Assembly: GCF_001544915.2 (NCBI RefSeq)
Contig: NZ_FCOE02000043.1
Coordinates: 1 to 30,000 of the forward strand
Direction: 5' to 3'
DNA: 30,000 bases
From: Caballeronia pedi
GTDB lineage: Bacteria; Pseudomonadota; Gammaproteobacteria; Burkholderiales; Burkholderiaceae
Shown: positions 1 to 22,616 of the stretch, piece after piece
Numbering within the stretch: position 1 is the first letter of the stretch
Layout of the letters: each line of letters begins with the position of its first letter
The notes under the pieces: model-generated
The model's database searches: none
What the model was told of the DNA's origin: nothing
Seen by the model: the letters and a program-made list of their open reading frames with translations, nothing else
Program-made: the position numbers and the translations under genes

Positions 1-239
1 ATGTTCAGCACCGTCGCATCGATGTTTTCCGCGAGGCCTTCGGCGAGTTGGGGCGCATCGGCGAGCAGCACTTTGCTGACGCCCGCGATCTTCGCTGCCG
101 CATCCGCCGCGCCTTGCGCGTTCGAACCTGCAACCAGCACATGCACATCGCCGCCGATCTTCGCGGCCGCTGCCACCGTGTTCAGCGTCGATGCCTTGAT
201 CGACGCGTTGTCGTGTTCCGCAATTACCAGAATCGTCAT
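1..239 (-). CDS. etfA: Electron transfer flavoprotein alpha subunit, N-terminal fragment (gene runs off the left edge of the window)
   Basis: Minus-strand ATG at 237-239 with a GGAGA RBS (complement of 244-248). My translation reads MTILVIAEHDNASIKASTLN, a typical EtfA N-terminus. It lies 22 nt downstream of etfB. It is absent from the ORF track because no stop codon falls inside the window. Confidence 0.85.
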   Translation of the reverse strand, partial: MTILVIAEHDNASIKASTLNTVAAAAKIGGDVHVLVAGSNAQGAADAAAKIAGVSKVLLADAPQLAEGLAENIDATVLN

Positions 240-5701: not shown

Positions 5702-7375
5702 CTACGCCACGGTCGCGCTGGCGTCGCGCATCGAGCGGCCAGCGTGCGCCGCCAGTTGACCCGTCACCGGCATCGGCGCCGCGACCAGTCCGCGAATCAG
5801 GTCGGAGGCCTTCTCCGCGATCATCAGCGTCGGCGCATTCGTGTTGGAGCTGACGATGCGCGGCATCACCGATGAATCCGCCACCCGCAAGCCTTCGATG
5901 CCATGCACGCGCAATTGCGGATCGACCACCGACATCTCGTCGATCCCCATCTTGCAGGTGCCGACCGGGTGATAGCCCGTGCGCCCGTACTGCTTCGCGT
6001 ATTCCTCGTATTGCGCCTGCGTGCGCACCGTGCCGCCCGGAAAGTGCTCGCTCCTGATGTACTTGCTGAACGCCTTCTGGCTCATGATTTCGCGGCTCTG
6101 ACGGATGCCTTCGACCGCCACCTTGAGATCGTAAGGATCACGAATGTAGGCGGGATCGATGACCGGCGCGTCGGCGGGATCGGCGCTGTTGAGCGTCACG
6201 CTGCCGCGGCTTCTCGGGCGCAGGAAGTACGAGTTAAGCGTGCAGCCCGAACCGGAAGGCACCGGCGGCACGCCCGCTTCCACGCCGGCGCCGGGCAGGA
6301 AGTGGAACTGCAGATCAGGCGTCGGCACATCGCTGCCGGAGTACCAGAACGCGCCGCCTTCCGCGATGTTCGACGTCACCGGTCCCTTGTTGAACATTTT
6401 GTATTCGAGGCCGGCGAGCAGCATCATGTGCTTCTTCGCGTACTTGTCGAGACTGTACGGGCCGTTGAGCTCGTACACGATATCGATGTCGAAGTGATCC
6501 TGCAGATTCGCGCCGACGCCATCGAGCGCGTGCAAGGGTTTGATGCCCGCACGCTCGAGATCCGCTGCGCGCCCGATGCCCGAGAGCATCAGTATCTTCG
6601 GCGAGCCGATCGCGCCGGCCGTCACGATCACTTCGCGCTCGGCGCGCGCCACGATCACATTCGAGCGCGCGTTCTGATCGGCATATTCGACGCCCACCGC
6701 GCGCCCGTTCTCGATCACGATGCGCGCTACGAGACAGTTCGTCTTCACGGTGAGATTGCTGCGCGAGCGCGCCTGTTGCAAATAACCGACCGCCGCGCTG
6801 CAGCGCCGTCCGCCGCGTTGCGTGACCTGATACACGCCGACGCCTTCCTGCTGTGCGCCGTTGAAATCGCTGTTGTACGGCAGGCCCGCTTCCTGACCGG
6901 CGAGCACGAAAGCCTTGGTCAGTTCGTTGACGCTGATCAGATCGGACACACCGAGCGGTCCGCCAACGCCGTGATATTCGTTGCACAGGCGCTCATTGTC
7001 TTCCATGCGGCGCAGATAGGGCAGCACGCCGTCGCGAAAGCCCCAGCCAGTGCAGCCTTCGCGTTCCCAGCCGTCGTAGTCGGCGGGCTGACCGCGCGTA
7101 TAGACCATCGCGTTGATGGAACCGCCGCCGCCGAGCACACGCCCCTGCGCGAACGGAATCTCGCGCCGTTGCGTTTCCGCCGCCGCCACCGTGCGATAAC
7201 CCCAGGTCAGCGGGCCGCCGGTCATCTTGAAGAAGCCGACCGGCATATGGATGTAGGGGTCGGTATCAGCGGGACCCGCTTCGAGCAGTAGCACACGGCT
7301 GCTTGCGTCTTCGCTCAGACGCGCCGCCAGTGCACAGCCCGCCGCGCCACCGCCCACGATCACATAGTCATACAT
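5702..7375 (-). CDS. GMC-family FAD-dependent oxidoreductase (choline/alcohol dehydrogenase-like)
   Basis: ORF 5702..7597. The real start is the internal ATG at 7373-7375 (MYDYVIVGGGAAGCALAARLSED, an ADP-binding fold at the N-terminus) with a GGAGAC RBS. The C-terminal part carries GMC hallmarks: HPVGTCKMG and RVADSSVMP. Confidence 0.9.
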   Translation of the reverse strand: MYDYVIVGGGAAGCALAARLSEDASSRVLLLEAGPADTDPYIHMPVGFFKMTGGPLTWGYRTVAAAETQRREIPFAQGRVLGGGGSINAMVYTRGQPADYDGWEREGCTGWGFRDGVLPYLRRMEDNERLCNEYHGVGGPLGVSDLISVNELTKAFVLAGQEAGLPYNSDFNGAQQEGVGVYQVTQRGGRRCSAAVGYLQQARSRSNLTVKTNCLVARIVIENGRAVGVEYADQNARSNVIVARAEREVIVTAGAIGSPKILMLSGIGRAADLERAGIKPLHALDGVGANLQDHFDIDIVYELNGPYSLDKYAKKHMMLLAGLEYKMFNKGPVTSNIAEGGAFWYSGSDVPTPDLQFHFLPGAGVEAGVPPVPSGSGCTLNSYFLRPRSRGSVTLNSADPADAPVIDPAYIRDPYDLKVAVEGIRQSREIMSQKAFSKYIRSEHFPGGTVRTQAQYEEYAKQYGRTGYHPVGTCKMGIDEMSVVDPQLRVHGIEGLRVADSSVMPRIVSSNTNAPTLMIAEKASDLIRGLVAAPMPVTGQLAAHAGRSMRDASATVA

Positions 7376-7446: not shown

Positions 7447-8955
7447 CTACGCGATCCAGCGCGGCCGCTTGCCGAGCTGGACATGTACGGACTTGATTTC
7501 CGTGTATTCCTCGACGCCATAGCGCCCCGTCTCGCGACCGATGCCCGATTGCTTGAATCCGCCGATGGGCATTTCCGGACCGCCGGTGATCGTGCAATTG
7601 ACCCAGATGCGGCCCGCCTGCACGTCGCGCAAGCTCTTGAACGCGCCTTGCAGATCGCGCGTCCAGATGCTTGCGGCGAGACCGTACGGCACGCCGTTCG
7701 CGAGTCCGATGGCTTCATCGAAGCTGTCGAAGGGCATGACCGACAGAACCGGCCCGAAAATCTCGTCCTGCGCGAGCGCGCTGCCGGGCTGCACGTTGCG
7801 AAACACCGTCGGCTGGATGAAGAAGCGTTCGCCTTCGCTCCTCGTGTCGCCGCCGCATACGAGTTGCGCGCCGTCCCGCGTGCCCGCATCGATGAAGCCG
7901 CGAATCTTGTCGAACTGACGCGCCTCGACGATCGCCCCGACATGATTGGACGCATCGAGCGGATCGCCCGTGCGCACGCGGGCGAGCACCGCGCGGATAC
8001 GCTCGACGAGTTCGGCTTCCACCGACCGGTGCACGACGAGCCGGCTACCCGACACGCAGCACTGACCCGCATTGAACGCGATGCCGAACGCGATGGCGTC
8101 GGCGGCGTCGTCGAGATCGGCATCGGCGAAGACGATCTGCGGATTCTTGCCGCCGAGTTCGAGCCCGACCTTCTTCATGTTGCCGCCCGCCGCTGCGAGC
8201 ACCGCGCGGCCCACTTGCGTCGAACCGGTGAACGAGATCATGTCGACGTCCATGTGCTCGGCGAGCGCCTGGCCGACCACCGAACCGAGACCCGTGACCA
8301 CGTTCACCACCCCATCGGGCAGACCGGCTTCGGTGAGGAGCGCGGCGAGTTTGAGTGTCGTGGTCGAGGTCAGCTCGGCAGGCTTCACGACCACCGTGCA
8401 TCCCGCGGCGAGCGCGAACGGCAGACGTTCGGAAAGAATGAAGAACGGAAAATTCCATGGCGTGACGATGCCCACGACACCCACCGGCTGCCGCAGCACC
8501 AGCCCGAGCATGTCGGGGCCGAGCGTGTCGTGCGAATCGCCATGCACCACGCGCGCAAGCCCCGCCGCGTATTCCCAGATGCCCGCGGCCGCCGTGACTT
8601 CGCCGCGCGACTGGCCGATCGGCTTGCCGCTTTCGAGCGTTTCCAGATACGCCAGCGTCTCCACGTTGTCGCGGATCAGGCGCGCCGCTTTCAGCAGGAC
8701 CGTCGCGCGCTGTTCGCCGGAAAGCCGTGACCAGCGGCCGTCGTCGAACGCGCGGCGGGCGGCGGCCACCGCTGCGTCGAGATCGCCGGCTGACGCGCGC
8801 AGCGTAGCCGTGACGCCCACGCCGTGCCCCGGACTCTTGCGCGTCACCCATTCGGCGGATGAACCCGTATGGTCTTTTCCGTCGATGAACATCGGCGTGC
8901 GCAACGGTTCGTCGGGAAGATGCAGCGAGGCTGCGAGTTTGCTCAGGTCACTCAT
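7447..8955 (-). CDS. NAD(P)-dependent aldehyde dehydrogenase
   Basis: ORF 7447..8967. ALDH hallmarks are ELGGKNP and the catalytic-Cys segment FNAGQCCVSGSR. I chose the start at the second ATG (8953-8955, MSDLSKL) because a GGAGAC RBS lies 5 nt upstream of it. Confidence 0.9.
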   Translation of the reverse strand: MSDLSKLAASLHLPDEPLRTPMFIDGKDHTGSSAEWVTRKSPGHGVGVTATLRASAGDLDAAVAAARRAFDDGRWSRLSGEQRATVLLKAARLIRDNVETLAYLETLESGKPIGQSRGEVTAAAGIWEYAAGLARVVHGDSHDTLGPDMLGLVLRQPVGVVGIVTPWNFPFFILSERLPFALAAGCTVVVKPAELTSTTTLKLAALLTEAGLPDGVVNVVTGLGSVVGQALAEHMDVDMISFTGSTQVGRAVLAAAGGNMKKVGLELGGKNPQIVFADADLDDAADAIAFGIAFNAGQCCVSGSRLVVHRSVEAELVERIRAVLARVRTGDPLDASNHVGAIVEARQFDKIRGFIDAGTRDGAQLVCGGDTRSEGERFFIQPTVFRNVQPGSALAQDEIFGPVLSVMPFDSFDEAIGLANGVPYGLAASIWTRDLQGAFKSLRDVQAGRIWVNCTITGGPEMPIGGFKQSGIGRETGRYGVEEYTEIKSVHVQLGKRPRWIA

Positions 8956-9027: not shown

Positions 9028-9043
9028 CACCATCCGGTTACTT
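9028..9043 (+). promoter_or_regulatory. Candidate operator box A (CACCAtccGGTTACTT) in the ALDH/TetR divergent intergenic region
   Basis: 13 of 16 positions are identical to the box at 11434..11449 on the same strand. An inverted partial copy, ATGGTGC, lies at 8979-8985. Both copies are preceded by CATTCT. Confidence 0.45.
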
Positions 9044-9124: not shown

Positions 9125-9808
9125 ATGACCCTCGCCACCACCACGCAGAAACGCGCATCCAAGACCGCCGAGGCCGACGTCACGCGTCAGCCCAGACAAC
9201 GGGACCCGGAGGTGACGAAGGCCCGCATCCTCGAAGCCGCGAAAAAGGAATTCGCCAAGCTCGGCATGGCGGGCGCGCGAGTCGAAGCCATCGCGACACG
9301 CGCGAAGGCCAACAAGCGGATGATCTATCACTACTTCGGCAGCAAGGAGGAACTGTTCGTCGCGGTCCTCGAAGACGTCTACGCCGACATCCGCTTTGCC
9401 GAGCAGAAGCTCGATCTCGACCATCTCTCCCCCGAGGACGCGATCGTCGCGCTCACCACGCACACCTGGAACTACTACCTGAAGAACCCCGAATTCATGA
9501 CGCTCGTGAACAGCGAGAACCTGCATCGTGCGCGGCATGTCAAGAAGTCCGCGCGCTTCAAGGAACTGCATCAGGGTTTCATTTCGATGCTCCAGCGCAT
9601 CCTCGACCGCGGCGTCGCAGCAGGCGTGTTCCGTAGCGGCGTCGATGCGCGGCAACTGCACATCACCATGGCCGCGATCGGCTATTACTACCTCACGAAC
9701 CGCTTCACGAGCGGTGTGATCTTCGACATCGACTTCATGGACAAGGCGGCGCTCAAGAGCCGCCTCGACTTCAACATCGAGACCATCCTGCGGCTCGTAC
9801 GGCCGTGA
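9125..9808 (+). CDS. TetR/AcrR-family transcriptional regulator
   Basis: 227 aa. The N-terminal HTH region ILEAAKKEFAKLGMAGARVEAIATRAKANKRMIYHYFGSKEELF is typical of TetR proteins. The gene is transcribed divergently from the ALDH arm. Confidence 0.9.
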   Translation: MTLATTTQKRASKTAEADVTRQPRQRDPEVTKARILEAAKKEFAKLGMAGARVEAIATRAKANKRMIYHYFGSKEELFVAVLEDVYADIRFAEQKLDLDHLSPEDAIVALTTHTWNYYLKNPEFMTLVNSENLHRARHVKKSARFKELHQGFISMLQRILDRGVAAGVFRSGVDARQLHITMAAIGYYYLTNRFTSGVIFDIDFMDKAALKSRLDFNIETILRLVRP

Positions 9809-9833: not shown

Positions 9834-11366
9834 TCACGCCACCTTCTCTTGCGATGCCGACATCCGCGCGAACAACGCTTCATCGACGAGCGGACGGAAC
9901 GCCATGCGCGCGAGCACGTCACGCTCGATATCGACGCCATCCGCAACCTCGATCAGACGCACGCCTTCGGCTTCGAGTCGAAACACCGCGCGCTCGGTCA
10001 CGTAAAGCACTTCCTGAGCGCTGCGCAACGCCTGCTCGCCGCTGAACGTGATGTGCTGCACGCGTTCGACGAGCTTCGGCACGCTGCCCGGCGACACGAT
10101 GTTCAAACGCGTCCCTACCTGTTCGACTGCCAGCCCCTTCGCCTCGAAACTGCCGCAGAAAACGATCTTGCGCGCGCCCTGCGTGATGTCGATGAAACCG
10201 CCCGGCCCGACCACCGTCGAACCGAGCTTCGACACGTTGATATTGCCCGCGCCATCCATCTCGCCCATGCCGAGGAAGGAAACATCGACGCCGCCGCCGC
10301 TGTAGAAATCGAACTGGTCGACGCTCGACAGGATCGCGTGTGCATTGCGCGCCGTGCCGAACATGGGGCCATCGAGCATGGCGCCGTTGTGGATGCCCTG
10401 CTCCACCGATCCCCAGAACGTGCCCATGCGCCCCTGCTCCGCAAGCAACGCCGGAATGCCGCCCGGAATGCCGAAACCGAAATTCGCCGACTGTCCCTCA
10501 TGCAGTTCGAGCGCGGCGCGCGCCGCGATGATGCGGCGGATGCCCGTCGGCGCTTCGTAGAACCCGTCGCCGATGGCGCACTGCGCTTCGCCGCTCAGCG
10601 CCGGATCGTAGTCCGACACCACGCATTGCACCTGCCCGGGTGTCTCGACGAGCGTATCGACGAGAATGCCCGGAATGCGTACGAGGCGCGCCGGCACATA
10701 GCCGTCAGGCTCGCGCTCCTTCACCTGCACGATGACGCGGCCCGCGCTGTTGTGCGCGGCCAGCGCGGCGGCGTAGACATCGAGGTCGGCCGGTTCGCGT
10801 CGCAGGGTGACATTGCCGCTTTCATCGGCGGATGAGCCGCGCACGATCGCGAAATCGACCTTGAACGGCTTGTAGCGCAGGTACTCACGGCCGTCGAGTT
10901 CGATCAGCTCCACCAGGTCTTCGCTGGCGCGTTCGTTGATCTTGCCGCCATCGATACGCGGATCGACAAAGGTTCGCAGTCCCACATGCGTGACGAGTCC
11001 CGGCCGGCCCGCGCCGATCTCGCGCAGCAGCGTGGAGATGACGCCCGCCGGAAAGCTGTACGCCTCGAACGCATTCTCGCGGGCGAGCTTCTGCATCGCG
11101 GGCGCCCAGCTCCAGTGGCCGCCGATCACGCGCCTGACCATGCCCGCATGCGCGAACCGGCCCAGCCCGCTGCCCTTGGCGTCGCCGATACCGAGCGCGT
11201 GGACGATGGTCAGGTCGCGCGGATGCCCGGTTTCGAGAAAGCGCCGTTCGAGCTGCGCGAGCACGGCGTCCGCTTCGAGCAGCCCGCCGCCGGAACCCGC
11301 GAGCGCGATCGTCGCGCCATCGAAAATCTGCCCGACCGCAGCGGCAGCGTCCATCCACTTGTTCAC
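9834..11366 (-). CDS. Family-I acyl-CoA:acetate/3-ketoacid CoA-transferase, fused alpha/beta type (YdiF-like)
   Basis: ORF 9834..11414. The product is about 510 aa with the ALAGSGGGLLEADAV and GGHWSWAP regions typical of fused family-I CoA-transferases. I chose the GTG at 11364-11366, 6 nt after an AAGGAG RBS. The ATG at 11352-11354 is an alternative start. Confidence 0.8.
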   Translation of the reverse strand: MNKWMDAAAAVGQIFDGATIALAGSGGGLLEADAVLAQLERRFLETGHPRDLTIVHALGIGDAKGSGLGRFAHAGMVRRVIGGHWSWAPAMQKLARENAFEAYSFPAGVISTLLREIGAGRPGLVTHVGLRTFVDPRIDGGKINERASEDLVELIELDGREYLRYKPFKVDFAIVRGSSADESGNVTLRREPADLDVYAAALAAHNSAGRVIVQVKEREPDGYVPARLVRIPGILVDTLVETPGQVQCVVSDYDPALSGEAQCAIGDGFYEAPTGIRRIIAARAALELHEGQSANFGFGIPGGIPALLAEQGRMGTFWGSVEQGIHNGAMLDGPMFGTARNAHAILSSVDQFDFYSGGGVDVSFLGMGEMDGAGNINVSKLGSTVVGPGGFIDITQGARKIVFCGSFEAKGLAVEQVGTRLNIVSPGSVPKLVERVQHITFSGEQALRSAQEVLYVTERAVFRLEAEGVRLIEVADGVDIERDVLARMAFRPLVDEALFARMSASQEKVA

Positions 11367-11400
11367 TGAAAGCTCCTTTGAGAATCCGCCGCGAAAGCCA

Positions 11401-11429
11401 TTGACAGCGGCCATTCGTTGGTCTTAAAT
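11401..11429 (+). promoter_or_regulatory. Putative sigma70 promoter of the ACAD operon (TTGACA-N17-TTAAAT)
   Basis: Perfect -35 TTGACA at 11401-11406, a 17-nt spacer, and -10 TTAAAT at 11424-11429. The implied leader before the ATG at 11569 is about 130 nt. Confidence 0.5.
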
Positions 11430-11433
11430 AACC

Positions 11434-11449
11434 CACCAGATGGTTACTT
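11434..11449 (+). promoter_or_regulatory. Candidate operator box B (CACCAgatGGTTACTT) overlapping the predicted transcription start of the ACAD operon
   Basis: Same box as 9028..9043. It is embedded in the inverted repeat TAACC-N8-GGTTA (11429-11446). An inverted copy of ACCAGAT occurs at 11539-11545. Confidence 0.45.
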
Positions 11450-11568
11450 GTTGCGAATGTTGGCACACGAAACCTCTGAATTCAAGCGGTATTTCGACGG
11501 TCTGCGGGTATACCTTCAAGACAAGTCCTGCCGCAAATATCTGGTCTGACGAATGGCATGGAGACAGC

Positions 11569-12714
11569 ATGAGACTCTCGGAAACACACGAGCAAATCCG
11601 CGACACCACGCGGCGTTTTGCGCAGGAAGTCATCCGGCCCCTGGCCGAGGAACTGGATCGCGAAGAGCGCTTTCCGGCGGAGATCTACAAGCAGATGGGC
11701 GAGCTCGGGCTATTCGGCATCACCGTGCCGGAGGCATTCGGCGGCGCCGGGATGGATGTCACGGCGTATGCGCTCGTGATGGAGGAGTTGTCGCGCGGTT
11801 ACGCGTCGGTGGCGGACCAGTGCGGCCTGCTCGAACTCGTCGGCACCTTGCTGAGCGTGCACGGCAGCGATGCGCAGCGCGCAAGGTATCTCGAATCGCT
11901 GCTGCGCGCGGAGCTGCGCCCGGCTTACTGCATCACCGAATCCGACGCGGGGACGGACGTCTCCGGCATCCGGACCACCGCCACGCGTACGGCCGATGGC
12001 TGGGAACTCAGCGGCGCGAAGCTGTGGATTCATAACGCGCCGGTCGCGGACCTCGCCTTCGTGCTGGCGCGCACCGACCCGGCGGCGGGCAAGCGCGGCA
12101 TGAGCATCTTCATCGTCGACTGTCATTTGCCAGGTGTATCGAAGGGGCCGAAGGAGCACAAGATGGGGCAGCGCGCGTCGCAGGTCGGGGAGCTTCATTT
12201 CGATCGCGTGAAGCTTGCCGAAGACGCGCTGCTCGGACAGGAAGGCCGCGGCTTTCACATGATGATGAGCGCGCTCGACAAAGGCCGCGTGGGCATTGCC
12301 GCGCTGGCGGTCGGCATTGCGCAGGCGGGTCTCGAAGCCGCGCTCGACTACGCGCAGACCCGCAAGCAGTTCGGCACGCATATCGCCGAGTTTCAGGGCG
12401 TGCAGTGGATGCTCGCCGACATGGCGAAGGATATCCAGGCCGCGCGCCTGCTGGTGCACGATGCCGCCGCGCGTCTCGAAGCCGGTGAGCGTGCGAGCAT
12501 CGCATGTTCGATGGCGAAATGCTTCGCGGGCGATACAGCGGTCAAGCACAGCGCGAATGCCGTGCAGATCTTCGGCGGCAGTGGCTACATTCGCGGCTAT
12601 GAAGTGGAACGCCTCTATCGCGATGCGAAGATCACGCAGATCTACGAAGGCACGAACCAGATTCAGCGCACGATCATCGCGCGCGATCTGATCGCCAACG
12701 GAGCATCGTTATGA
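11569..12714 (+). CDS. Acyl-CoA dehydrogenase (short/medium-chain type, ETF-dependent)
   Basis: ORF 11440..12714. I chose the start at MRLSETHEQIRDTTRRFAQE (ATG 11569) after a GGAGAC RBS. The product is 381 aa. The C-terminal IYEGTNQIQRTIIAR segment carries the catalytic Glu typical of this subfamily. Confidence 0.9.
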   Translation: MRLSETHEQIRDTTRRFAQEVIRPLAEELDREERFPAEIYKQMGELGLFGITVPEAFGGAGMDVTAYALVMEELSRGYASVADQCGLLELVGTLLSVHGSDAQRARYLESLLRAELRPAYCITESDAGTDVSGIRTTATRTADGWELSGAKLWIHNAPVADLAFVLARTDPAAGKRGMSIFIVDCHLPGVSKGPKEHKMGQRASQVGELHFDRVKLAEDALLGQEGRGFHMMMSALDKGRVGIAALAVGIAQAGLEAALDYAQTRKQFGTHIAEFQGVQWMLADMAKDIQAARLLVHDAAARLEAGERASIACSMAKCFAGDTAVKHSANAVQIFGGSGYIRGYEVERLYRDAKITQIYEGTNQIQRTIIARDLIANGASL

Positions 12715-13490
12715 GCGCGCGCCCCGTTGCGCTCGTCACGGGCAGCCGGCGCGGCATCGGGCGGGCGATTGCAATCGAACTCGGCCGCGCGGGATTCGAT
12801 GTCGCGCTCACCGACGCCGTGGCCTCCGATGAACTCGATCAGGCCGCCGCCGAAGTCGCACGGACCGGCGCGCGGGCGATCGCCGTCGTCTCCGATCTCG
12901 CCGATATCGCCTCGCATCACGCCACGCTGCTCGATGTCGAAACGCGTCTCGGCGGTCCGATCGATTGCCTCGTGAATAACGCGGGCGTGTCGGTAATGTC
13001 GCGCGGCGATCTGCTCGACGTGACGCCCGAGAGCTTCGACCGCTGTATCGCGATCAATACGCGCGGGACCTTCTTTCTGACGCAGGCGTTCGCGCGGCAC
13101 TTTCTGTCGCGTACGCGCAAGAGCGTGGCGGCACATCCGAGCGTCATCACGATCACCTCGTCGAATGCGGTCGCCGCTTCGCCATTGCGCAGCGAGTATT
13201 GCGTGTCGAAGGCGGGGTCATCGATGGCCACGACGCTGTTTTCGCTGCGTCTCGCGGAGCACGGCATCGGCGTCTATGAAGTGCAGCCCGGTCTGATCGA
13301 GACCGAGATGACCGCGCCTTCCCGCGCGCGCTATGACGCGCAGATGGAGCAAGGTCTCACCGCCATCAGGCGCTGGGGCACGCCACTGGAAGTCGCGACC
13401 GCCGTGCGCACGCTCGCGACCGGTGGCTTGCCCTATAGCGTAGGACAGGCGATCCGCGTCGATGGCGGCTTACTCGTCAACAAATACTGA
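12711..13490 (+). CDS. Short-chain dehydrogenase/reductase (3-oxoacyl/3-hydroxyacyl reductase-like)
   Basis: 259 aa. Cofactor motif TGSRRGIGRAIA, NNAG, and catalytic YCVSK (YxxxK). The start overlaps the ACAD stop (ATGA at 12711-12714). Confidence 0.9.
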   Translation: MSARPVALVTGSRRGIGRAIAIELGRAGFDVALTDAVASDELDQAAAEVARTGARAIAVVSDLADIASHHATLLDVETRLGGPIDCLVNNAGVSVMSRGDLLDVTPESFDRCIAINTRGTFFLTQAFARHFLSRTRKSVAAHPSVITITSSNAVAASPLRSEYCVSKAGSSMATTLFSLRLAEHGIGVYEVQPGLIETEMTAPSRARYDAQMEQGLTAIRRWGTPLEVATAVRTLATGGLPYSVGQAIRVDGGLLVNKY

Positions 13491-13491
13491 C

Positions 13492-14667
13492 ATGCACATG
13501 ACCTCAACGCTCAAGCTGCCGACTACCCTCGGCACGATGGAAAGTTATCGCCTGCAAGGCACGCCGCTCGATGTGCGAACGCCCGCTCGCGCGTTCAACC
13601 GCATCACCTATTCGGCCGCGCACGTCGTGGCCGATCCGCTGCGCGCCGCTGAACTCGGCGCGCCGCCCGCCATCGACTGGGAGCGCACGCTCGAATATCG
13701 GCGCTATCTGCTCAGGCAAGGTCTCGGCATCGCCGAGGCGATGGACACCGCGCAACGCGGCATGGGTCTTCCGTGGCATAGCGCGCTGGAACTCATCACG
13801 CGCACCATCGAAGGCACGCGCGATATTCCCGGCGCATTGATTGCGTCGGGCTGCGGCACGGATCACGTCGCGCTGTCATCGATCACGAACTGCGATCAGG
13901 TGATCCGCGCCTACGCCGAACAACTCGAAGCCGTGCAGCGCGTGGGCGGACGCGTCATCCTGATGGCAAGCCGGGCGCTTGCGCGGGTCGCGCGCTCGCC
14001 GGATGACTATCGGCGGGTCTATCGTGAAGTCCTGGCAATGTGCGATCGGCCGGTGATCCTGCACTGGCTCGGCGAGATGTTCGATCCCGAACTGGCGGGT
14101 TACTGGGGCGAAGCGGCTTATGAGCGCGCCGCGCAAGTGTGTCTCGACGTGATCGGCGACAGCGTCGATCGTGTCGACGGCATCAAGATATCCCTGCTCG
14201 ACGACGCCAAGGAAATTGCGTTCCGCCGTCGGCTGCCGCACACGGTGAAGATGTACACCGGCGACGATTTCAACTATCCGGACCTGATAGCGGGCGACGC
14301 CGCCGGTTATTCGCATGCGCTGCTCGGCATCTTCGATGCGATTGCGCCGGCCGCGTCGCAGGCACTCGACGCGCTCGCCGGCGATGACCTCGATACGTTC
14401 CATGCGCTGCTTGCGCCGACGGTTCCGCTGTCGCGTCACATCTTCCGGGCGCCGACGCAGTACTACAAGACCGGCGTCGTGTTCCTCGCCTATCTGAACG
14501 GCTTTCAGGATCACTTCTTCATGCTCGGCGGCCATCATGGCATGCGCCCGCCCGCCTATCTCGCGGATGTTTTCCGTCTTGCCGACCAGGCAGGTCTGCT
14601 GCGCGATCCCGACGGTGCCATCGGCCGCGTTCGCAAGGTCATGACGGCGCTTGGTTGCGGCGAGTGA
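13492..14667 (+). CDS. DUF993-family protein (annotated in databases as dihydrodipicolinate synthase family; function unknown)
   Basis: ORF 13462..14667. The segments YSAAHVVADPL and GIAEAMDTAQRGMGL match what I recall as hallmarks of DUF993. The ATG at 13492 lies 1 nt after the SDR stop; the ATG at 13498 is equally possible. Confidence 0.7.
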   Translation: MHMTSTLKLPTTLGTMESYRLQGTPLDVRTPARAFNRITYSAAHVVADPLRAAELGAPPAIDWERTLEYRRYLLRQGLGIAEAMDTAQRGMGLPWHSALELITRTIEGTRDIPGALIASGCGTDHVALSSITNCDQVIRAYAEQLEAVQRVGGRVILMASRALARVARSPDDYRRVYREVLAMCDRPVILHWLGEMFDPELAGYWGEAAYERAAQVCLDVIGDSVDRVDGIKISLLDDAKEIAFRRRLPHTVKMYTGDDFNYPDLIAGDAAGYSHALLGIFDAIAPAASQALDALAGDDLDTFHALLAPTVPLSRHIFRAPTQYYKTGVVFLAYLNGFQDHFFMLGGHHGMRPPAYLADVFRLADQAGLLRDPDGAIGRVRKVMTALGCGE

Positions 14668-14669
14668 TC

Positions 14670-15521
14670 ATGAGAAACCTGCAGGGAAGACTCGATCTTT
14701 GCTCCGTCAACACCGCGACGCTCGGCCATCGCGAGCCGCTGAGCGTGACGATCGACCGCATTGCGGCGGCAGGATTCGGCGGCATCGCACCGTGGCGTCA
14801 TGAAGTGGAGAACGCGAATGTGGCCGAACTCGCGAGGCAGCTCCGCGCTGTCGGCCTGAGCGTCACGGGCTATTGCCGTTCGACGTATCTGCCAGCGACC
14901 AGCCGTGAGCAATTCGCCGCGAACATCGACGCGAACAAGGCGGCCCTGCGCGATGCCGCGACCCTTGGTGCGCGCTGCTTCGTCATGGTGGTCGGTGGCT
15001 TGCCCGAGGGCAGCCGAGATCTGGACGGCGCGCGCGCTCAGGTCATCGACGGGATCGGCGAACTGCTTCAGACGGCGCGCGATTGTGGCGTGCCGCTCGC
15101 GCTCGAACCGCTTCATCCGATGTACGCAGCGGACCGCGCCGTCATCAACACGCTTGCGCAGGCGCTGGACATTTGCGCCGAACTCGATCCTGAGCACGCC
15201 GGCAATCTCGGCGTCGCGCTCGATGTCTATCACTGCTGGTGGGACCCGGCGCTGCGCGCATCGATCGCGCGAGCGGGACAGGACGAACGCCTGCTCGCGT
15301 TTCATGTGTGCGACTGGCTGCGCGAAACACGCGATCTCTTGCTGGATCGCGGCATGATGGGCGACGGTGTCGTCGATCTCTCCGGCATTCGAAGGAGCGT
15401 CGAGCACGCCGGTTATGACGGACTGGTCGAAGTCGAGATTTTCTCGAAAGAAAACTGGTGGCGCCGCGATCCGGATGACGTGCTGCGCATCTGCGCGGAA
15501 CGCCTGCAGAACGTATGCTGA
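14670..15521 (+). CDS. Sugar phosphate isomerase/epimerase-family protein (xylose isomerase-like TIM barrel)
   Basis: ORF 14655..15521. I chose the start at MRNLQGRLDL, 2 nt after the DUF993 stop. At 283 aa, its length and pattern (LALEPLHP, FHVCDW) are typical of the AP-endonuclease-2/xylose-isomerase-like TIM family. Confidence 0.8.
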   Translation: MRNLQGRLDLCSVNTATLGHREPLSVTIDRIAAAGFGGIAPWRHEVENANVAELARQLRAVGLSVTGYCRSTYLPATSREQFAANIDANKAALRDAATLGARCFVMVVGGLPEGSRDLDGARAQVIDGIGELLQTARDCGVPLALEPLHPMYAADRAVINTLAQALDICAELDPEHAGNLGVALDVYHCWWDPALRASIARAGQDERLLAFHVCDWLRETRDLLLDRGMMGDGVVDLSGIRRSVEHAGYDGLVEVEIFSKENWWRRDPDDVLRICAERLQNVC

Positions 15522-15539
15522 AACGATGAGAGGAACATC

Positions 15540-16523
15540 ATGACGCGTGACAAGGTTCGTTGGGGCGTGCTTGGCGCCGCCCGAATCGCCGACAATTTCG
15601 TGGTGCCCGCCATCCAGCGATCGGCCAACGGTCGCGTGGTGTGCGTCGCCGCGCGCGATCGCGAGCGCGCTGCCGCTTTCGCCGCGCGGCACGGTATCGC
15701 AGCCGCACATGCGAGTTACGACGAAGTCATCGCAAGCGACCAGATCGATGCCGTCTACATCCCTCTGCCGACGGCCAGTCACTTCGAGTGGTGCAGAAAG
15801 GCGCTGCTCGCGGGCAAACATGTCCTGTGCGAAAAACCCATCGCGATGACGGCCTCGCAGGTTCGTGAGTTGATCGCGCTGCGGGACGCGACGGGCCTGA
15901 TCTGCGGCGAGGCGTTCATGGTTGCGCACCATCCGCAGTGGGCGTTCGTGAAGGAGCGCATCGCAGACGGGACACTTGGCCAACTGAAACGCGTGGAAGG
16001 GTCCTTCACTTATTTCAACGATGATCCTCGCGCACTCAAAAATGATCTGGCGCTGGGCGGCGGCGGGGTGCGCGACATCGGCGTCTATCCCGTCGTCACG
16101 ACGCGCATCGCGACGGGCCTCGAACCTGTCGAGGTCAACGCGAGCATTACCATCGATCCGCGCTACGGCACGGACACGCTGGCGGTCTGCGATCTGAAGT
16201 TTCCCGGCTTCGACCTTCACTTCTACTGCGGCACGCAACTCGCGCGCCGCCAGCATATGATCTTCCACGGCTCGAAAGGCTGGCTTTCACTGGATGCGCC
16301 GTTCAACCCCGGCGTATACGCCGGCGCGTGCGTTCATATTCGTTCGGATGACACGGGAAAGGTCGAAACGGTCGAGTTTGGAAACGTCGATCAGTATCAG
16401 TCGATGGTGGAAAACTTCAGTGCGGCGGTGCTCGGGCCGGACAAATCGATTGCATTTGCGCTCGAGAATTCGCTGGGCAACCAGCTTGTCATCGACGAGG
16501 TCCTGTCTCATGCCGACCGTTAG
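15540..16523 (+). CDS. Gfo/Idh/MocA-family NAD(P)-dependent oxidoreductase
   Basis: 327 aa. N-terminal Rossmann segment VRWGVLGAARIADNFVVPA plus the family motif HVLCEKP. GAGAGGA RBS upstream. Confidence 0.85.
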   Translation: MTRDKVRWGVLGAARIADNFVVPAIQRSANGRVVCVAARDRERAAAFAARHGIAAAHASYDEVIASDQIDAVYIPLPTASHFEWCRKALLAGKHVLCEKPIAMTASQVRELIALRDATGLICGEAFMVAHHPQWAFVKERIADGTLGQLKRVEGSFTYFNDDPRALKNDLALGGGGVRDIGVYPVVTTRIATGLEPVEVNASITIDPRYGTDTLAVCDLKFPGFDLHFYCGTQLARRQHMIFHGSKGWLSLDAPFNPGVYAGACVHIRSDDTGKVETVEFGNVDQYQSMVENFSAAVLGPDKSIAFALENSLGNQLVIDEVLSHADR

Positions 16524-16551
16524 CGCGACCGCAGGCAGGAAAGCAACGTCG

Positions 16552-16800
16552 ATGACCGATGTGCAGCAACTTCGGGAAACCCGCGCGCTGGCGGCCGCCT
16601 GCGCCAACGCGGATGACGCATCCTTATGGCGATGGTTTTCGGCCTTGATGGACGGTGGAGAAATTCGCTGGTGCCGCGCGGCCGAAGGCTGGCTCGTCAG
16701 CGTCAATCATCGGCATGTGGCGACCGCCGCATCCTTCGATGAGGCCATTCGCAGCGCCAAGGCGCATGTTCATTCCGCGATGCGCTTGAAACTGGCGTAG
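16552..16800 (+). CDS. Small hypothetical protein (82 aa), no family recognised
   Basis: Internal ATG of ORF 16294..16800, preceded by AGGAAAG. Third-codon positions are mostly G/C, consistent with coding sequence in this genome. Its 3' end overlaps the convergent RNase-like gene by 31 nt. Confidence 0.4.
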   Translation: MTDVQQLRETRALAAACANADDASLWRWFSALMDGGEIRWCRAAEGWLVSVNHRHVATAASFDEAIRSAKAHVHSAMRLKLA

Positions 16801-17228
16801 TAATCCTCGGTGTAGTAGCAGTCGCCCGTCTGCCGGCGCGGTCCGCCGCACACGATGCGGCGCTGCCCGCGATCCGTCGAACCGGGCGTGCGAACCGTAT
16901 ATGCGTGGTAATAGCCGCGCGGATGCTGCGGCAGCAGTGTCGAGCTGTTGCGGAACAGGACGCCGTCCTCGCCAAACGGGTACGGGCCGCCCGCTTTGAT
17001 CAGACGCAGCGTTTCGGTTGCCTCCGCCGGCAACTTCGCCCGGGTGACTGTGGCGAGCACGCCCGACGCGGCGGGTGGCTCGCTCGCGGCCTGGCTCAGC
17101 TGGCCCGCCGCCTGACTCGCGGCGGATGCGCCCGTGTCCTGAGCAGCAGTAGGCGATTTGTTCTTGTCGCATCCGCCGAGGAGAGCGCTCAAGACGAAGA
17201 TGCAGGTGAAAACGCGTGCCGGTTTCAC
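16770..17228 (-). CDS. Lipoprotein of the barnase/RNase Sa (N1/T1) ribonuclease family, apparently lacking catalytic residues
   Basis: 152 aa with a GTG start after a GGAGAC RBS. Signal peptide with lipobox LLGG-C, followed by an Ala/Ser/Gln-rich linker. The C-terminal domain aligns by eye with RNase Sa (LPAEATETLRLIKAGGPYPFGEDGVLF...GYYHAYTVRTPG...RGQRRIV...YYTEDYYASFKRI). Confidence 0.8.
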   Translation of the reverse strand: MKPARVFTCIFVLSALLGGCDKNKSPTAAQDTGASAASQAAGQLSQAASEPPAASGVLATVTRAKLPAEATETLRLIKAGGPYPFGEDGVLFRNSSTLLPQHPRGYYHAYTVRTPGSTDRGQRRIVCGGPRRQTGDCYYTEDYYASFKRIAE

Positions 17229-17391: not shown

Positions 17392-19977
17392 TTACATCTT
17401 CACGGTATCGGCCACTTCCTTGAAGTCTTCGATGCGGTCGAAGTTCATGTACTGGTAAATCTTGTCGCTGTTGGCGTCGAGCACGCCGATGTCGGCCATG
17501 TATTCGGCCTTGCTCGGAATCTTGCCCAGCCGCGAGCAGATCGCCGCCAGTTCCGCCGAGCCGAGGTACACGTTCGTGTTCTTGCCCAGGCGGTTCGGGA
17601 AGTTGCGGGTCGAGGTCGACATGACCGTCGCGCCTTCGCGCACCTGTGCCTGGTTGCCCATGCACAGCGAGCAGCCCGGCATTTCGGTACGCGCGCCGGC
17701 CGTGCCGAACACGCCGTAGTGGCCTTCCTCGGTCAGCTGCTTCTGATCCATCTTCGTCGGCGGAGCGACCCACAGCTTGACGGGGATGTCGCGCTTGCCT
17801 TCCAGCAGCTTCGACGCGGCACGGAAGTGACCGATGTTGGTCATGCACGAACCGATGAACACTTCGTCGATCTTGGCGCCGGCCACGTCCGACAGCGTCT
17901 TCACGTCGTCCGGATCATTCGGGCAGGCCACGATCGGCTCGTGAATATCAGCGAGGTCGATCTCGATGACGGCTGCGTACTCGGCGTCTGCATCCGGCGA
18001 CAGCAATTGCGGGTCGGCGAGCCACTGTTCCATCGCCTCGATGCGGCGCTGCAGGCTGCGCGGATCCTGATAGCCCTGGGCGATCATCCACTTCAGCAGC
18101 GTGACGTTGCTGTTGAGATATTCGATGATCGGTTCCTTGTTCAGATGGACCGTGCATCCGGCGGCCGAACGCTCGGCCGAAGCATCCGACAATTCGAACG
18201 CTTGCTCGACCTTCAGGTCGGGCAGGCCTTCGATTTCGAGCACGCGGCCCGAGAAGATGTTCTTCTTGCCTTGCTTGGCAACCGTCAGCATGCCCTGCTT
18301 GATCGCGTACAGCGGGATTGCGTTGACCAGATCGCGCAGGGTCACGCCCGGCTGCATCTTGCCCTTGAAGCGGACCAGCACCGATTCAGGCATGTCCAGC
18401 GGCATGGTGCCCGTGGCGGCCGCGAAGGCGACCAGGCCCGAACCCGCCGGAAAGCTGATGCCGATCGGGAAGCGCGTGTGCGAGTCGCCGCCGGTGCCGA
18501 CGGTGTCGGGCAGCAGCATGCGGTTCAGCCACGAGTGGATCACGCCGTCGCCCGGGCGCAGCGCGATGCCGCCACGGGTGCTGATGAAGTTCGGCAGGGT
18601 CTGGTGGGTCTTCACGTCCACCGGCTTCGGATAAGCGGCCGTATGGCAGAACGACTGCATGACGAGATCGGCCGAGAAGCCCAGGCACGCCAGGTCCTTC
18701 AGTTCGTCGCGGGTCATCGGGCCGGTGGTGTCCTGCGAGCCGACCGAGGTCATCTTCGGTTCGCAGTACGTGCCCGGACGCACGCCCTGACCTTCCGGCA
18801 GGCCGCAGGCGCGGCCGACCATCTTCTGGGCCAGCGAGAAGCCACGGCCGTTGTCGGCGGGTTGCTGCGGCAGGCGGAACAGGGTCGATGCAGGCAGGCC
18901 CAGCGCTTCGCGCGCCTTCGCGGTCAGCCCGCGGCCGATGATCAGCGGAATGCGGCCGCCGGCGCGCACTTCGTCGAACAACACGTCGGACTTGACCTGG
19001 AATTCGGCGATCACTTCGCCGTTCTTCAGCGCGCGGCCTTCGTACGGGCGCAGTTCGACCACGTCGCCCATTTCCATCTTCGAGACATCGAGTTCGATCG
19101 GCAGGGCGCCCGCGTCTTCCATGGTGTTGTAGAAGATCGGGGCGATCTTGCCGCCCAGGCACACGCCGCCGAAGCGCTTGTTCGGGATGAACGGAATGTC
19201 CTCGCCCGTGAACCACAGCACCGAATTGGTGGCCGACTTGCGCGAGGAACCGGTGCCGACCACATCGCCTACATACGCGACCAGGTGACCCTTTTCCTTC
19301 AGCGACTCGATGAACGCGACAGGCCCACGCTTGCCGTCTTCTTCCGGCGTGATGCCGGGACGGGCGTTCTTCAGCATCGCCAGCGCGTGCAGCGGAATAT
19401 CCGGGCGCGTGGTGGCGTCCGGGGCCGGCGACAGGTCGTCGGTGTTGGTTTCGCCCGTCACCTTGAAGACGGTGATGGTCAGGCTTTGCGGCACTTCCGG
19501 ACGGCTCGTGAACCATTCGGCGTCCGCCCAGCTTTGCAGCACGGCGCGCGCGTTGGCGTTGCCCGCGTCGGCCAGTTCCTTCACGTCGTGGAACTGGTCG
19601 AACATCAGGAGGGTTTTCTTGAGCGCTTCGGCGGCCACGGCGCCGACTTCGGCGTCGGACAGCAGCTCGATCAGCGGCTCGATGTTGTAACCGCCGAGCA
19701 TGGTGCCGAGCAGTTCGGTGGCGCGGGCGCGCGTAATCAGTGCGCAGGCCGTCTGACCCTTGGCCACGGCGGCGAGAAAGCCGGCCTTGACGCGGGCGGC
19801 TTCGTCCACGCCCGCGGGCACGCGGTTGGTGATCAGGTCGAGCAGCGTCTGCTCTTCACCGGCGGGCGGATTCGCCAGCAGTTCCACCAGCTCGGCGGTT
19901 TGCTGAGCCGACAGCGGCAGGGAAGGAATACCGAGCGCGGCGCGCGCGGCTGTATGGGCGCGAAAGTTTTCGAGCAT
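17392..19977 (-). CDS. acnB: Aconitate hydratase B / 2-methylisocitrate dehydratase
   Basis: 861 aa, colinear with AcnB throughout, from the N-terminal [22 protein letters not shown] to the C-terminal Fe-S ligand region ([14 protein letters not shown]). Confidence 0.95.
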
Positions 19978-20049
19978 GGTGACCGTTCGTATTGCGTTTC
20001 AGGGGCTTTCCAAACGTGCCGAGGGTGTTCTGGCACTGCTTCGGCCGCC

Positions 20050-20078
20050 ATTTTAATCGCAATACTGCACCGCGTCAA
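20050..20078 (-). promoter_or_regulatory. Putative sigma70 promoter of acnB (TTGACG-N17-TAAAAT)
   Basis: On the minus strand, -35 TTGACG lies at 20078-20073, followed by a 17-nt spacer and -10 TAAAAT at 20055-20050. The implied 5' UTR is about 65 nt. Confidence 0.55.
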
Positions 20079-20080
20079 AT

Positions 20081-20101
20081 GTCTTATGTCTTATGTCTTA
20101 T
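20081..20101. repeat. Three perfect tandem heptamers (GTCTTAT x3; ATAAGAC on the acnB strand) immediately upstream of the acnB -35 element
   Basis: Read directly from the sequence: gtcttat gtcttat gtcttat at 20081-20087, 20088-20094 and 20095-20101. Confidence 0.9.
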
Positions 20102-20155
20102 ATAAGAGTTGATGGCGAAAAGTTTGCCCAGTGATGATGGGCAGTCGATGTTCCC

Positions 20156-20180
20156 GTGCGCCGCCCCGTAGGCGGCGCAC
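20156..20180 (-). terminator. GC-rich stem-loop 5 nt downstream of the ketopantoate-reductase-like gene (possible terminator, no U tract)
   Basis: GTGCGCCGCC-ccgta-GGCGGCGCAC, a perfect 10-bp stem. A second, weaker hairpin (TGCCCA-N7-TGGGCA) at about 20125-20143 is followed on the minus strand by AAACUUUUCG. Confidence 0.4.
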
Positions 20181-20185
20181 GTCTG

Positions 20186-21202: not shown

Positions 21203-21208
21203 GGTCAC

Positions 21209-22606: not shown

Positions 22607-22616
22607 GTCGATCTCC

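Follow-up and report, generated by a model that had tools for sequence, protein, structure and literature searches.

A catabolic gene set that numbers at least 17 genes and, judged from the sequence, appears to be controlled by a single repressor was identified in a 30,000-nt stretch of Caballeronia pedi DNA (contig NZ_FCOE02000043.1, positions 1 to 30,000; hereafter the window). An original prediction had described a five-gene operon with one CoA (coenzyme A)-transferase gene at 9834-16523; instead, the set extends leftwards to the window edge and takes in a TetR-family regulator, an aldehyde dehydrogenase (ALDH), a GMC flavoprotein oxidoreductase, a CUT2 ATP-binding cassette (ABC) transporter and an electron-transfer flavoprotein (ETF). 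At slightly better than even odds, these genes form a TetR-controlled catabolic regulon of which the six genes reported earlier are the right-hand half. The function favoured here, with a probability of roughly 0.55, is a repressor-controlled route in which an alcohol would be converted to an acid, then to an acyl-CoA and a 3-oxo intermediate, followed by non-thiolytic processing by a DUF993 protein and a xylose-isomerase-like TIM-barrel enzyme (TIM), with a C3 unit such as glycerate as the probable end point. The gene set is real, widespread, apparently co-regulated and, as far as could be found in the literature and in curated models, uncharacterised.

The predicted regulon consists of three transcription units and the TetR gene, which flank two copies of one operator-like motif. 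The units are ALDH-GMC-ABC transporter-ETF, the CoA-transferase gene alone, and an operon of acyl-CoA dehydrogenase (ACAD), short-chain dehydrogenase (SDR), DUF993, TIM and Gfo/Idh/MocA oxidoreductase (Gfo). Its members include ALDH, GMC, four ABC-transporter genes, ETF beta and alpha, TetR, the CoA-transferase, and ACAD through Gfo, which are located as follows.

1-239, minus strand: 5' end of the gene for ETF alpha, truncated by the window edge (tblastn with ETF alpha of the related loci L025 and L084)
262-1011, minus strand: ETF beta subunit (Pfam ETF), 30 nt downstream of the ABC permease gene
1042-2001, minus strand: CUT2 sugar-type ABC permease 1, 319 aa (Pfam BPD_transp_2; 319-aa call on L094)
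2009-3508, minus strand: ABC ATPase with two ATP-binding domains (Pfam ABC_tran, two stretches)
3525-4544, minus strand: CUT2 sugar-type ABC permease 2 (Pfam BPD_transp_2)
4541-5620, minus strand: periplasmic sugar-type binding protein with twin-arginine signal SRRDFMK (Pfam Peripla_BP_4; 359-aa call in Caballeronia sp. NK8)
5702-7375, minus strand: GMC flavoprotein oxidoreductase, choline-dehydrogenase-like (Pfam GMC_oxred_N and GMC_oxred_C)
7447-8955, minus strand: NAD(P)-dependent ALDH, first gene of the leftward operon (Pfam Aldedh, 550 bits; 502-aa call in NK8)
9028-9043, unstranded: operator-like motif CACCATCCGGTTACTT in the ALDH/TetR divergent region
9125-9808, plus strand: TetR-family regulator (Pfam TetR_N and TetR_C_29), convergent with the CoA-transferase gene
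9834-11366, minus strand: fused family-I CoA-transferase of YdiF / 3-oxoacid type (Pfam CoA_trans)
11434-11449, unstranded: operator-like motif CACCAGATGGTTACTT in the CoA-transferase/ACAD divergent region
11569-12714, plus strand: ACAD of short/medium-chain type (Pfam ACAD N, M and C domains; IYEGT motif)
12711-13490, plus strand: classical SDR dehydrogenase (Pfam adh_short; NCBIfam PRK12745, 362 bits against a cut-off of 250)
13492-14667, plus strand: DUF993 protein (Pfam DUF993, 572 bits)
14670-15521, plus strand: xylose-isomerase-like TIM-barrel enzyme (Pfam AP_endonuc_2)
15540-16523, plus strand: Gfo/Idh/MocA oxidoreductase, last gene of the rightward operon (Pfam GFO_IDH_MocA)

The shared motif was spotted by eye and then tested by pattern counts. 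Within the 30-kb window, CACCAnnnGGTTACTT was confined to the two divergent promoter regions (9028-9043 and 11434-11449), and the 2 matches compared with 0.01 expected, a figure which overstates the significance because the pattern was derived from the two sites themselves. When the 11-base core was counted with at most 1 mismatch in 1.6 Mb of related loci, 48 matches were obtained, of which 33 were intergenic, intergenic DNA making up 13.9%. The intergenic matches lay nearly all directly upstream of cluster genes, namely those for the CoA-transferase, ACAD, ALDH, TetR, binding proteins and aldo-keto reductases. Exact copies were also present in promoter regions of orthologous clusters, the 11434-11449 site was kept at the same position in Paraburkholderia caribensis (L001), and the full palindrome GTAACCAnnTGGTTAC stood at the site in several genomes. 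An inverted-repeat search of the two intergenic regions found none. At the sequence level, a common operator-like motif was found before each transcription unit and was kept in orthologous loci. We infer that the motif (CACCAnnnGGTTAC sites) is the predicted operator of the TetR protein, and the ALDH-to-ETF operon, TetR, the CoA-transferase and the ACAD-to-Gfo operon were placed in one regulon because the motif is common to their promoters. The earlier idea that CoA-thioester and sugar-type enzymes are joined in one unit was borne out by this motif and by conserved gene order.

The gene models of the right-hand half agreed closely with the original prediction. All six family assignments were confirmed with Pfam (CoA_trans, three ACAD domains, adh_short, DUF993, AP_endonuc_2, GFO_IDH_MocA), and a third-codon-position GC content (GC3) of 0.75-0.82 favoured the six reading frames over overlapping alternatives. 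The head-to-tail packing and the four predicted junctions were exact when read from the sequence (11569-16523): the SDR start overlaps the ACAD stop (ATGA) at 12711-12714, SDR and DUF993 meet as TGA-c-ATG with a 1-nt gap at 13491, DUF993 and TIM meet as TGA-tc-ATG with a 2-nt gap at 14668-14669, and the 18-nt gap between TIM and Gfo at 15522-15539 holds a GAGAGG ribosome-binding site. The reported lack of hairpins between the genes was reproduced, since the scan gave 6 terminator-like sites in 8.5 kb against 5.6 expected and 0 at the junctions. The ACAD starts at ATG 11569, preceded by GGAGA. The CoA-transferase start is most likely GTG 11366, which is preceded by AAGGAG and agrees with the 510-aa call of the orthologue in Caballeronia sp. 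NK8; given this start, the 202-nt divergent control region described before holds. The longest open reading frame (ORF) of this gene begins at ATG 11414 and would leave a divergent region of 154 nt.

The genes of the leftward operon were all on the minus strand and closely spaced. Window positions 3498-24692 showed 96% DNA identity to an 848-kb replicon of Caballeronia sp. NK8, and the TIM protein encoded in the window gave a 100% match to one of Caballeronia pedi. Homologues of ABC permease 1 bear the name ribose/monosaccharide permease, and the best PDB match of the binding protein was 2RJO (E 1e-200), followed by ribose- and allose-binding proteins. The GMC enzyme fell just short of the cut-off for the choline dehydrogenase subfamily of NCBIfam (585 against 605 bits), and the ALDH, which has an alternative start at 8967, was below every NCBIfam equivalog cut-off. 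The order ABC permease-ETF beta-ETF alpha-Gfo2 was also found in Caballeronia sp. LZ001 (L095); beyond ETF alpha, the operon adds this second Gfo/Idh/MocA gene (Gfo2) both there and in P. caribensis (L093), where three more genes follow, for a shikimate-dehydrogenase-like protein, an aldo-keto reductase and an alcohol dehydrogenase of the Zn-dependent type. The ETF is embedded in the leftward operon because these orthologous operons continue past ETF alpha. The window etf genes gave a 96% nucleotide match to the etfBA genes of NK8, and the window ETF beta protein was 100% identical (96% in DNA) to that at a metNIQ-etfBA-long ACAD locus, which Caballeronia sp. NK8 and Burkholderia sp. THE68 carry on chromosome 1 (window 262-1011 against L088 10001-10750). 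The DNA likeness ended exactly at the start codon. We take the metNIQ-linked etfBA on NK8 chromosome 1 to be the housekeeping ETF copy, and the identity suggests a recent duplication or gene conversion between the presumed housekeeping ETF and the cluster ETF. As a separate observation, L095 of Caballeronia sp. LZ001 holds four tandem 86-aa ORFs and one 89-aa ORF at 14872-16660 on the opposite strand, just past the MOSC gene of the operon, which gave no Pfam matches.

A genome-neighbourhood analysis seeded with DUF993 had been proposed together with the original prediction, and it was performed with one genome per species and DUF993 alone as the seed; at least 593 loci were obtained, of which the best 80 were kept. 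DUF993 was present in at least 593 species-level genomes and matched at least 8,000 protein clusters. Synteny counts were taken from a tblastn table, and counts from crude gene calling of the loci are lower bounds because the caller missed genes and made spurious Arg-rich ORFs. Contiguous ACAD-SDR-DUF993-TIM recurred in 19/80 species genomes of Alpha- and Betaproteobacteria, an order not due to chance, and TIM adjoined DUF993 in nearly all 80 loci. The clusters with this order usually also had a CoA-transferase, GMC, ALDH, ETF and CUT2 ABC transporter, and often added an enoyl-CoA hydratase (ECH), aldo-keto reductases and a glycerate kinase. Their general order (type A, optional genes in parentheses) was (TetR) (ALDH-GMC) (aldo-keto reductase) CoA-transferase (ECH) (glycerate kinase) (aldo-keto reductase) ACAD-SDR-DUF993-TIM (ETF beta-alpha) (CUT2 ABC transporter). 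Type A hosts included Caballeronia, Paraburkholderia, Rhizobium, Shinella, Labrenzia, Paracoccaceae, Acetobacter, Gluconobacter and Gluconacetobacter. Two plasmids carried the cluster as well, namely pSymA in a Sinorhizobium meliloti strain and one in a Sinorhizobium sp., and each of these copies included ECH, two aldo-keto reductases and glycerate kinase. A minimal Burkholderiaceae variant had the arrangement MFS-ECH-CoA-transferase / TetR-SDR-DUF993-TIM. In an actinobacterial plasmid, Gfo-DUF993-TIM-glycerate kinase stood beside a family-III CoA-transferase, ECH and an FAD oxidoreductase, and this apparent non-homologous replacement points to a coupling of DUF993-TIM to CoA chemistry.

The second architecture (type B) comprised TetR, a NitT/TauT-type ABC or tripartite tricarboxylate transporter, a 472-aa protein, a 387-aa Gfo (PDB 3OQB) and DUF993-TIM, and no CoA enzyme was found in these loci. 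The TetR_C_29-type regulator stood beside DUF993-TIM in both architectures, and the operator was shared by type B loci as well. The best NCBIfam match of the 387-aa Gfo was inositol 2-dehydrogenase. As for the 472-aa protein, it was located directly upstream of Gfo-DUF993-TIM in L048, L024, L034 and about 30 other loci, was covered by no family model and gave a distant enolase-superfamily signal (PDB dipeptide epimerase, E 0.007). In a neighbour-joining tree of DUF993, the proteins of CoA-linked loci were set apart from type B almost perfectly in a clade of their own, and the two clades differed at 4 alignment positions only.

Based on these comparisons, the conserved core is, in terms of gene content, the CoA-transferase, ACAD and/or ECH, a dehydrogenase, DUF993 and TIM. 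The Gfo, which the original prediction counted within its five-gene set, falls outside it: in the tblastn table of the 80 loci, the window-type gene was confined to close Burkholderiaceae relatives (L001, L003, L004 and NK8), and it is a lineage-specific add-on. Its best PDB match was 4HAD, followed by sugar ketoreductases and dihydrodiol dehydrogenases. The restricted range of this gene, together with the occurrence of DUF993-TIM without CoA genes, would fit a chance juxtaposition, in which an ordinary fatty-acid ACAD-SDR pair lies beside an unrelated and independently regulated DUF993-TIM-Gfo sugar module. Such an origin is hardly tenable and is already largely refuted by synteny, as the gene order is kept in 19 of the 80 genomes across two proteobacterial classes, DUF993 proteins of CoA-linked loci group in a single clade, the genes overlap by 4 nt or are 1-2 nt apart at the junctions, the same operator-like motif occurs at both promoter regions, and different CoA-transferase families were recruited beside DUF993-TIM.

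The enzymes for CoA-thioester chemistry were then compared with known families. The best PDB match of the CoA-transferase was E. coli YdiF (1.7e-113), with 3-oxoacid transferases also close. It carries a VEQG motif at the position of SENG in family-I transferases. The ACAD keeps the catalytic-glutamate motif IYEGT in its translation; its best PDB matches were bacterial butyryl-/short-chain ACADs, and it reached no NCBIfam equivalog cut-off. Among the regulon proteins scanned, the generic SDR model PRK12745 was the sole NCBIfam model to pass its cut-off.

No enoyl-CoA hydratase, glycerate kinase or aldo-keto reductase was found by tblastn in the 30-kb window, the ECHs of related clusters serving as hydratase queries. 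The earlier statement that a hydratase is missing thus holds for the window, but only locally, for the alphaproteobacterial clusters and the minimal Burkholderiaceae variant encode ECH. The missing thiolase, also pointed out before, proved general: with the E. coli AtoB sequence as the query, tblastn revealed none in the window or in the flanks (up to 10 kb) of the CoA-linked loci scanned, Caballeronia sp. LZ001 apart, and the sole AtoB match was in the type B locus L055. A beta-oxidation-type enzyme set is consistently without thiolase and consistently with DUF993 and TIM. The missing thiolase is the more telling absence of the two.

The structure of DUF993 was compared by sequence and by model. 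The protein matched PDB 4DNH (SMc04132, 'uncharacterized') at E 4e-136, and its AlphaFold model (pLDDT 79) superposed on 4DNH in Foldseek with a TM of 0.91. After 4DNH, the top 50 were all DHDPS, NAL, MosA or PhdJ with a probability of 1.00; target-normalised TM-scores against DHDPS/NAL structures were 0.72-0.85, E-values 1e-9 to 1e-10 and identities 9-16%. On this modelled structure, DUF993 is predicted to have the (beta/alpha)8 DHDPS/NAL class I aldolase fold, and it is about 90 residues longer than that family. Lys232 was invariant in 69 sequences of both clades and lies on the predicted strand 228-234, which we take to be the sixth barrel strand, that of the Schiff-base lysine in DHDPS. 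From the model we infer Lys232 to be a candidate Schiff-base lysine, and the His-Trp after strand 5 presumably stands where DHDPS has its catalytic tyrosine. The claim that no class I or class II aldolase is present could therefore not be kept, as the locus is not aldolase-free if DUF993 has this predicted fold with an invariant lysine. The closest structures of TIM were SMc04130 (3QC0, 3JU2) and 7VPF, a 'putative sugar isomerase' of Paenibacillus, followed by IolI, ketose 3-epimerases, YcjR and YgbM (1K77); weak matches to QuiC, IolO, IolI and AsbF were also given. Three structural-genomics targets of one S. meliloti locus or its orthologues, SMc04132 (DUF993), SMc04130 (TIM) and the Gfo-type 3OQB, have been solved with their function unassigned, and SMc04132 and SMc04133 are listed among PhaR-regulated 'uncharacterized' genes.

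Glycerate kinases of two unrelated families (PF02595, and DUF4147 with MOFRL) occurred beside DUF993-TIM in about 8 loci and are the best clue to the end product. In the route favoured here, a neutral sugar-like alcohol or polyol would be imported by the CUT2 ABC transporter, and the GMC flavoenzyme and ALDH would convert its terminal alcohol group into a carboxylate, in the way that choline is oxidised by BetA and BetB. The family-I CoA-transferase would form the acyl-CoA without ATP cost, the ACAD with its own ETF would desaturate C2-C3, an enoyl-CoA hydratase (presumably encoded elsewhere in this genome, but within most orthologous clusters) would add water, and the SDR would turn the 3-hydroxyl into a 3-oxo group. 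No thiolysis would follow; the 3-oxoacid-type transferase would probably return CoA to fresh substrate (a 'CoA handle' like that of the carnitine Cai system). The oxo-acid would next pass to DUF993 and to TIM, the latter as a metal-dependent isomerase/epimerase, with DUF993 using Schiff-base chemistry on Lys232 in an aldol-type cleavage, decarboxylation or dehydration, to give a C3 unit ending as glycerate and a C2 unit, and Gfo and the aldo-keto reductases may set the redox state of the substrate or fragment. The route would be non-phosphorylative because no kinase is present. A hydroxylated carboxylate activated as its CoA ester, as proposed originally, stays the most reasonable substrate class. 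Other substrates were considered, namely autoinducer-2 (AI-2/DPD), mevalonate, 3-hydroxypropionate/acrylate, polyethylene glycol (PEG)-type ethers and carnitine-like betaines, and were set aside, as each covers part of the gene set or clashes with the sugar-type transporter or the ALDH subfamily.

Whether the intermediate is free or CoA-bound when it meets DUF993 was judged from the two architectures. A CoA-free intermediate is favoured because type B, which is without CoA enzymes, shares the enzyme pair, the TetR type and the operator, and because the active-site residues of DUF993 are nearly the same in both clades. The alternative, that in the same regulon the intermediate stays CoA-bound to the end, is unlikely in our estimate; DUF993 would then cleave the CoA ester to release acetyl-CoA (or acetoacetate) and a glyceryl unit, with acetyl-CoA or glyceryl-CoA serving the CoA-transferase for the next substrate. 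The conserved and translationally coupled ACAD-SDR-DUF993 order, the absence of thiolase from the flanks of CoA-linked loci and the separate clade of their DUF993 are all consistent with it. LsrF, reportedly an enzyme with a class I aldolase fold and CoA-dependent diketone cleavage, also speaks for it. In the Klebsiella deoxyribonate route, a CoA-transferase has been proposed to convert glyceryl-CoA to glycerate (PMC6365646). Against this, the same pair, regulator type and operator in type B loci and the few clade-specific positions argue for a common CoA-free substrate. A tentative extension of the free-acid route, which we hold clearly less probable than the route itself, is that DUF993-TIM may be an unrecognised C-C-cleaving or decarboxylating module with a class I aldolase fold that replaces thiolase after 'CoA-handle' beta-oxidation of deoxy-sugar-type acids. 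Two non-homologous funnels, one CoA-dependent (CoA-transferase, ACAD, ECH, SDR) and one CoA-independent (enolase-like protein, Gfo), would feed one intermediate, which would also be the TetR effector. Soil, plant-associated, acetic-acid and marine Proteobacteria would on this view share a new, widespread and non-phosphorylative way of turning polyols or hydroxy acids into glycerate.

Another substrate class was suggested by two genes of P. caribensis. A shikimate/quinate-dehydrogenase-like gene (Shikimate_dh_N) occupied the dehydrogenase slot directly upstream of DUF993 in L086 (8122-8946), a locus with a CoA-transferase, and a second one followed ETF alpha-Gfo2 in L093 (5558-6409); both are annotated as 'ThiF family adenylyltransferase'. 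A carbocyclic polyol acid of the quinate/shikimate/hydroxycyclohexanecarboxylate type could be treated like cyclohexanecarboxylate in Ali/Bad, through its CoA ester, ACAD, hydratase and SDR, with DUF993 as a Schiff-base dehydratase like type I dehydroquinase and TIM acting like dehydroshikimate or inosose dehydratase. The second-best NCBIfam match of the ACAD, cyclohexane-1-carbonyl-CoA dehydrogenase (315 bits, below the cut-off), the weak matches of TIM and the inositol 2-dehydrogenase match of the type B Gfo point in the same direction. However, all these similarities are far under the family cut-offs, an aromatising route would hardly account for the two unrelated glycerate kinase families, genes for ring cleavage or aromatic acids were lacking nearby, and the binding protein is of the ribose/allose type; a carbocyclic substrate appears somewhat less likely again than a CoA-bound intermediate.

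Several observations weigh against the alcohol-to-glycerate route. The step from ACAD to SDR is unaccounted for in the window because no hydratase is present there, and the pathway specificity of the window ETF beta is uncertain because the protein is identical to the presumed housekeeping copy. Caballeronia sp. LZ001 (L095) has a thiolase 4.5 kb past the operon end, behind unrelated genes. No sequence-profile link between DUF993 and DHDPS was obtained, as the profile search of the PDB found 4DNH alone, and hhalign of DUF993 with E. coli DapA gave a probability of 0.4%. The role of Lys232 was judged from the predicted strand on which it lies and not by superposing residues. The structures matching DUF993, TIM, the binding protein, SDR and Gfo are unannotated structural-genomics entries, with no characterised close homologue. 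Glycerate kinase was found in about 8 loci only and was absent from the Burkholderiaceae clusters, and the shikimate-dehydrogenase-like genes in two Paraburkholderia loci indicate another substrate class.

The genes to the right of the regulon appeared to be independent of it. Aconitase B, a PanE-type 2-dehydropantoate reductase and PntAB transhydrogenase follow at 17392-24176 in an order common to NK8, and they look like ordinary neighbours outside the regulon because no operator motif is near them. Between the Gfo gene and aconitase B, a 152-aa protein with a lipoprotein signal is encoded at 16770-17228 on the minus strand, the NK8 orthologue of which matches Pfam PF00545 (barnase/guanyl-specific ribonuclease family); small ORFs lie at 16524-16800, and one beside the 152-aa protein (82-90 aa in NK8) might be a ribonuclease inhibitor. 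At 25863-28887 on the minus strand, frc formyl-CoA transferase (727 bits against a cut-off of 504) adjoins oxc oxalyl-CoA decarboxylase (1000 against 739), a known oxalate degradation pair unrelated to the regulon, and a major facilitator superfamily (MFS) gene is located at 29049-29927. No RNA family was detected in an Rfam scan of the window.

In the literature, 'DUF993' and 'PF06187' occurred in none of about 8 million full texts, although a characterisation in a subscription journal remains possible, and no functional study was found for the locus tags of homologues or for the PDB entries 2RJO, 7VPF, 4DNH, 3JU2, 3QC0, 3OQB and 4HAD. The present locus ties DUF993-TIM to CoA chemistry, a dedicated ETF, a sugar-type transporter and a conserved repressor-type site, by which a bare DUF becomes a testable pathway hypothesis with few candidate substrates. 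If true, it would provide a thiolase-free finish to the beta-oxidation of hydroxylated acids, and an annotation gap would be filled in Caballeronia, Paraburkholderia, rhizobial symbiotic plasmids, Acetobacter and Gluconobacter.

Finally, the cluster was compared with known systems. It is improbable that the cluster is a pathway already described under a different name (for example deoxyribonate, carnitine/gamma-butyrobetaine, levulinate, inositol or choline). Parts of it do resemble such pathways: ALDH-GMC with TetR is like betIBA, the CoA-transferase, ACAD/ETF and ECH are like cai/fix, and CoA activation, a dehydrogenase and glycerate kinase are like the Klebsiella deoxyribonate route. Among the NCBIfam models, however, only the generic PRK12745 passes, the defining enzymes of these pathways (thiolase, BKACE, CaiB-type transferase, IolD/C/J, LvaAB) are missing, and the literature searched is silent on the function of DUF993. 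The earlier failure to recognise a pathway was matched by the lack of any curated equivalog model or published pathway in these searches. As in betI-betB-betA, a TetR-family gene lies by an ALDH gene followed by a GMC dehydrogenase gene for conversion of a primary alcohol to an acid; the bet genes differ in their transporter (BCCT/ProU against sugar-type here) and in that the TetR gene here is divergent and of the TetR_C_29 type, and the equivalog scores were below the cut-offs (betA 509 bits against 732, BADH 439 against 669). For iol, the IolG model gave 85 bits against 355 and TIM gave weak IolO/QuiC matches only; the regulon contains no thiamine diphosphate (ThDP) hydrolase, kinase or iol-type aldolase, the ThDP enzyme of the window being the oxalyl-CoA decarboxylase. 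Of Fad-type beta-oxidation, an ACAD with catalytic glutamate and an ETF were found in the regulon, and a hydratase and thiolase were lacking in the window.

In acid-sugar catabolism, the OtnI/OtnC tetronate, Ula/Sgb UlaD-UlaE and levoglucosan LgdA-LgdB systems combine a dehydrogenase with an AP_endonuc_2 isomerase/epimerase and a decarboxylase or aldolase. The present cluster shares with them the triad of a dehydrogenase, a keto intermediate and a metal-dependent TIM-barrel isomerase with a C-C-cleaving enzyme, and differs in having DUF993 as the cleaving enzyme and in being coupled to CoA chemistry. E. coli cai/fix (CaiB, CaiA, CaiD, FixAB) is similar to the proposed route in using CoA as a recyclable handle through a CoA-transferase, with an ACAD that has a dedicated ETF, a crotonase and no thiolysis. 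It differs in that CaiB belongs to family III and the pathway is reductive, acts on a betaine and employs the CaiT antiporter; the window transferase is of family I, the crotonobetainyl-CoA dehydrogenase model gave 173 bits against 540, and no ECH is present in the window.

The dehydrogenase and BKACE (DUF849) of the Pseudomonas simiae deoxyribonate route (PMC6365646) provide the logic proposed here for SDR followed by DUF993: an SDR makes the 3-oxo acid, and a TIM-barrel enzyme, not a thiolase, cleaves it. The same SDR and BKACE logic is found for dehydrocarnitine cleavage in aerobic carnitine catabolism. The BKACE family differs from DUF993, which has the predicted DHDPS/NAL fold. To our knowledge, acetyl-CoA dependence is not known for DUF993.

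The nearest precedent is the acyl-CoA route for 2-deoxy-D-ribonate in Klebsiella michiganensis, which the original prediction had also named as using another gene set, and we agree with this assessment (PMC6365646). Five enzymes are encoded in that cluster (Price et al. 2019, PMC6365646), namely a CoA synthetase, a beta-hydroxyacyl-CoA dehydrogenase, a thiolase, a CoA-transferase and a glycerate kinase; of these, the window has only the CoA-transferase and an SDR dehydrogenase, and no synthetase, thiolase or glycerate kinase. The Klebsiella route works with a synthetase and a thiolase and without ACAD/ETF, DUF993, TIM barrel, GMC and ALDH (PMC6365646), whereas the present cluster has no thiolase and is proposed to start from an alcohol. 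The CoA-transferase and glycerate kinase are both part of the Klebsiella cluster, and glycerate kinase is found in orthologous clusters here. In both routes, a hydroxylated sugar-type acid would be converted to its CoA ester, oxidised at C3 and, as has been proposed for Klebsiella, cleaved to a C2 fragment and a glyceryl moiety, which would end up as glycerate (PMC6365646).

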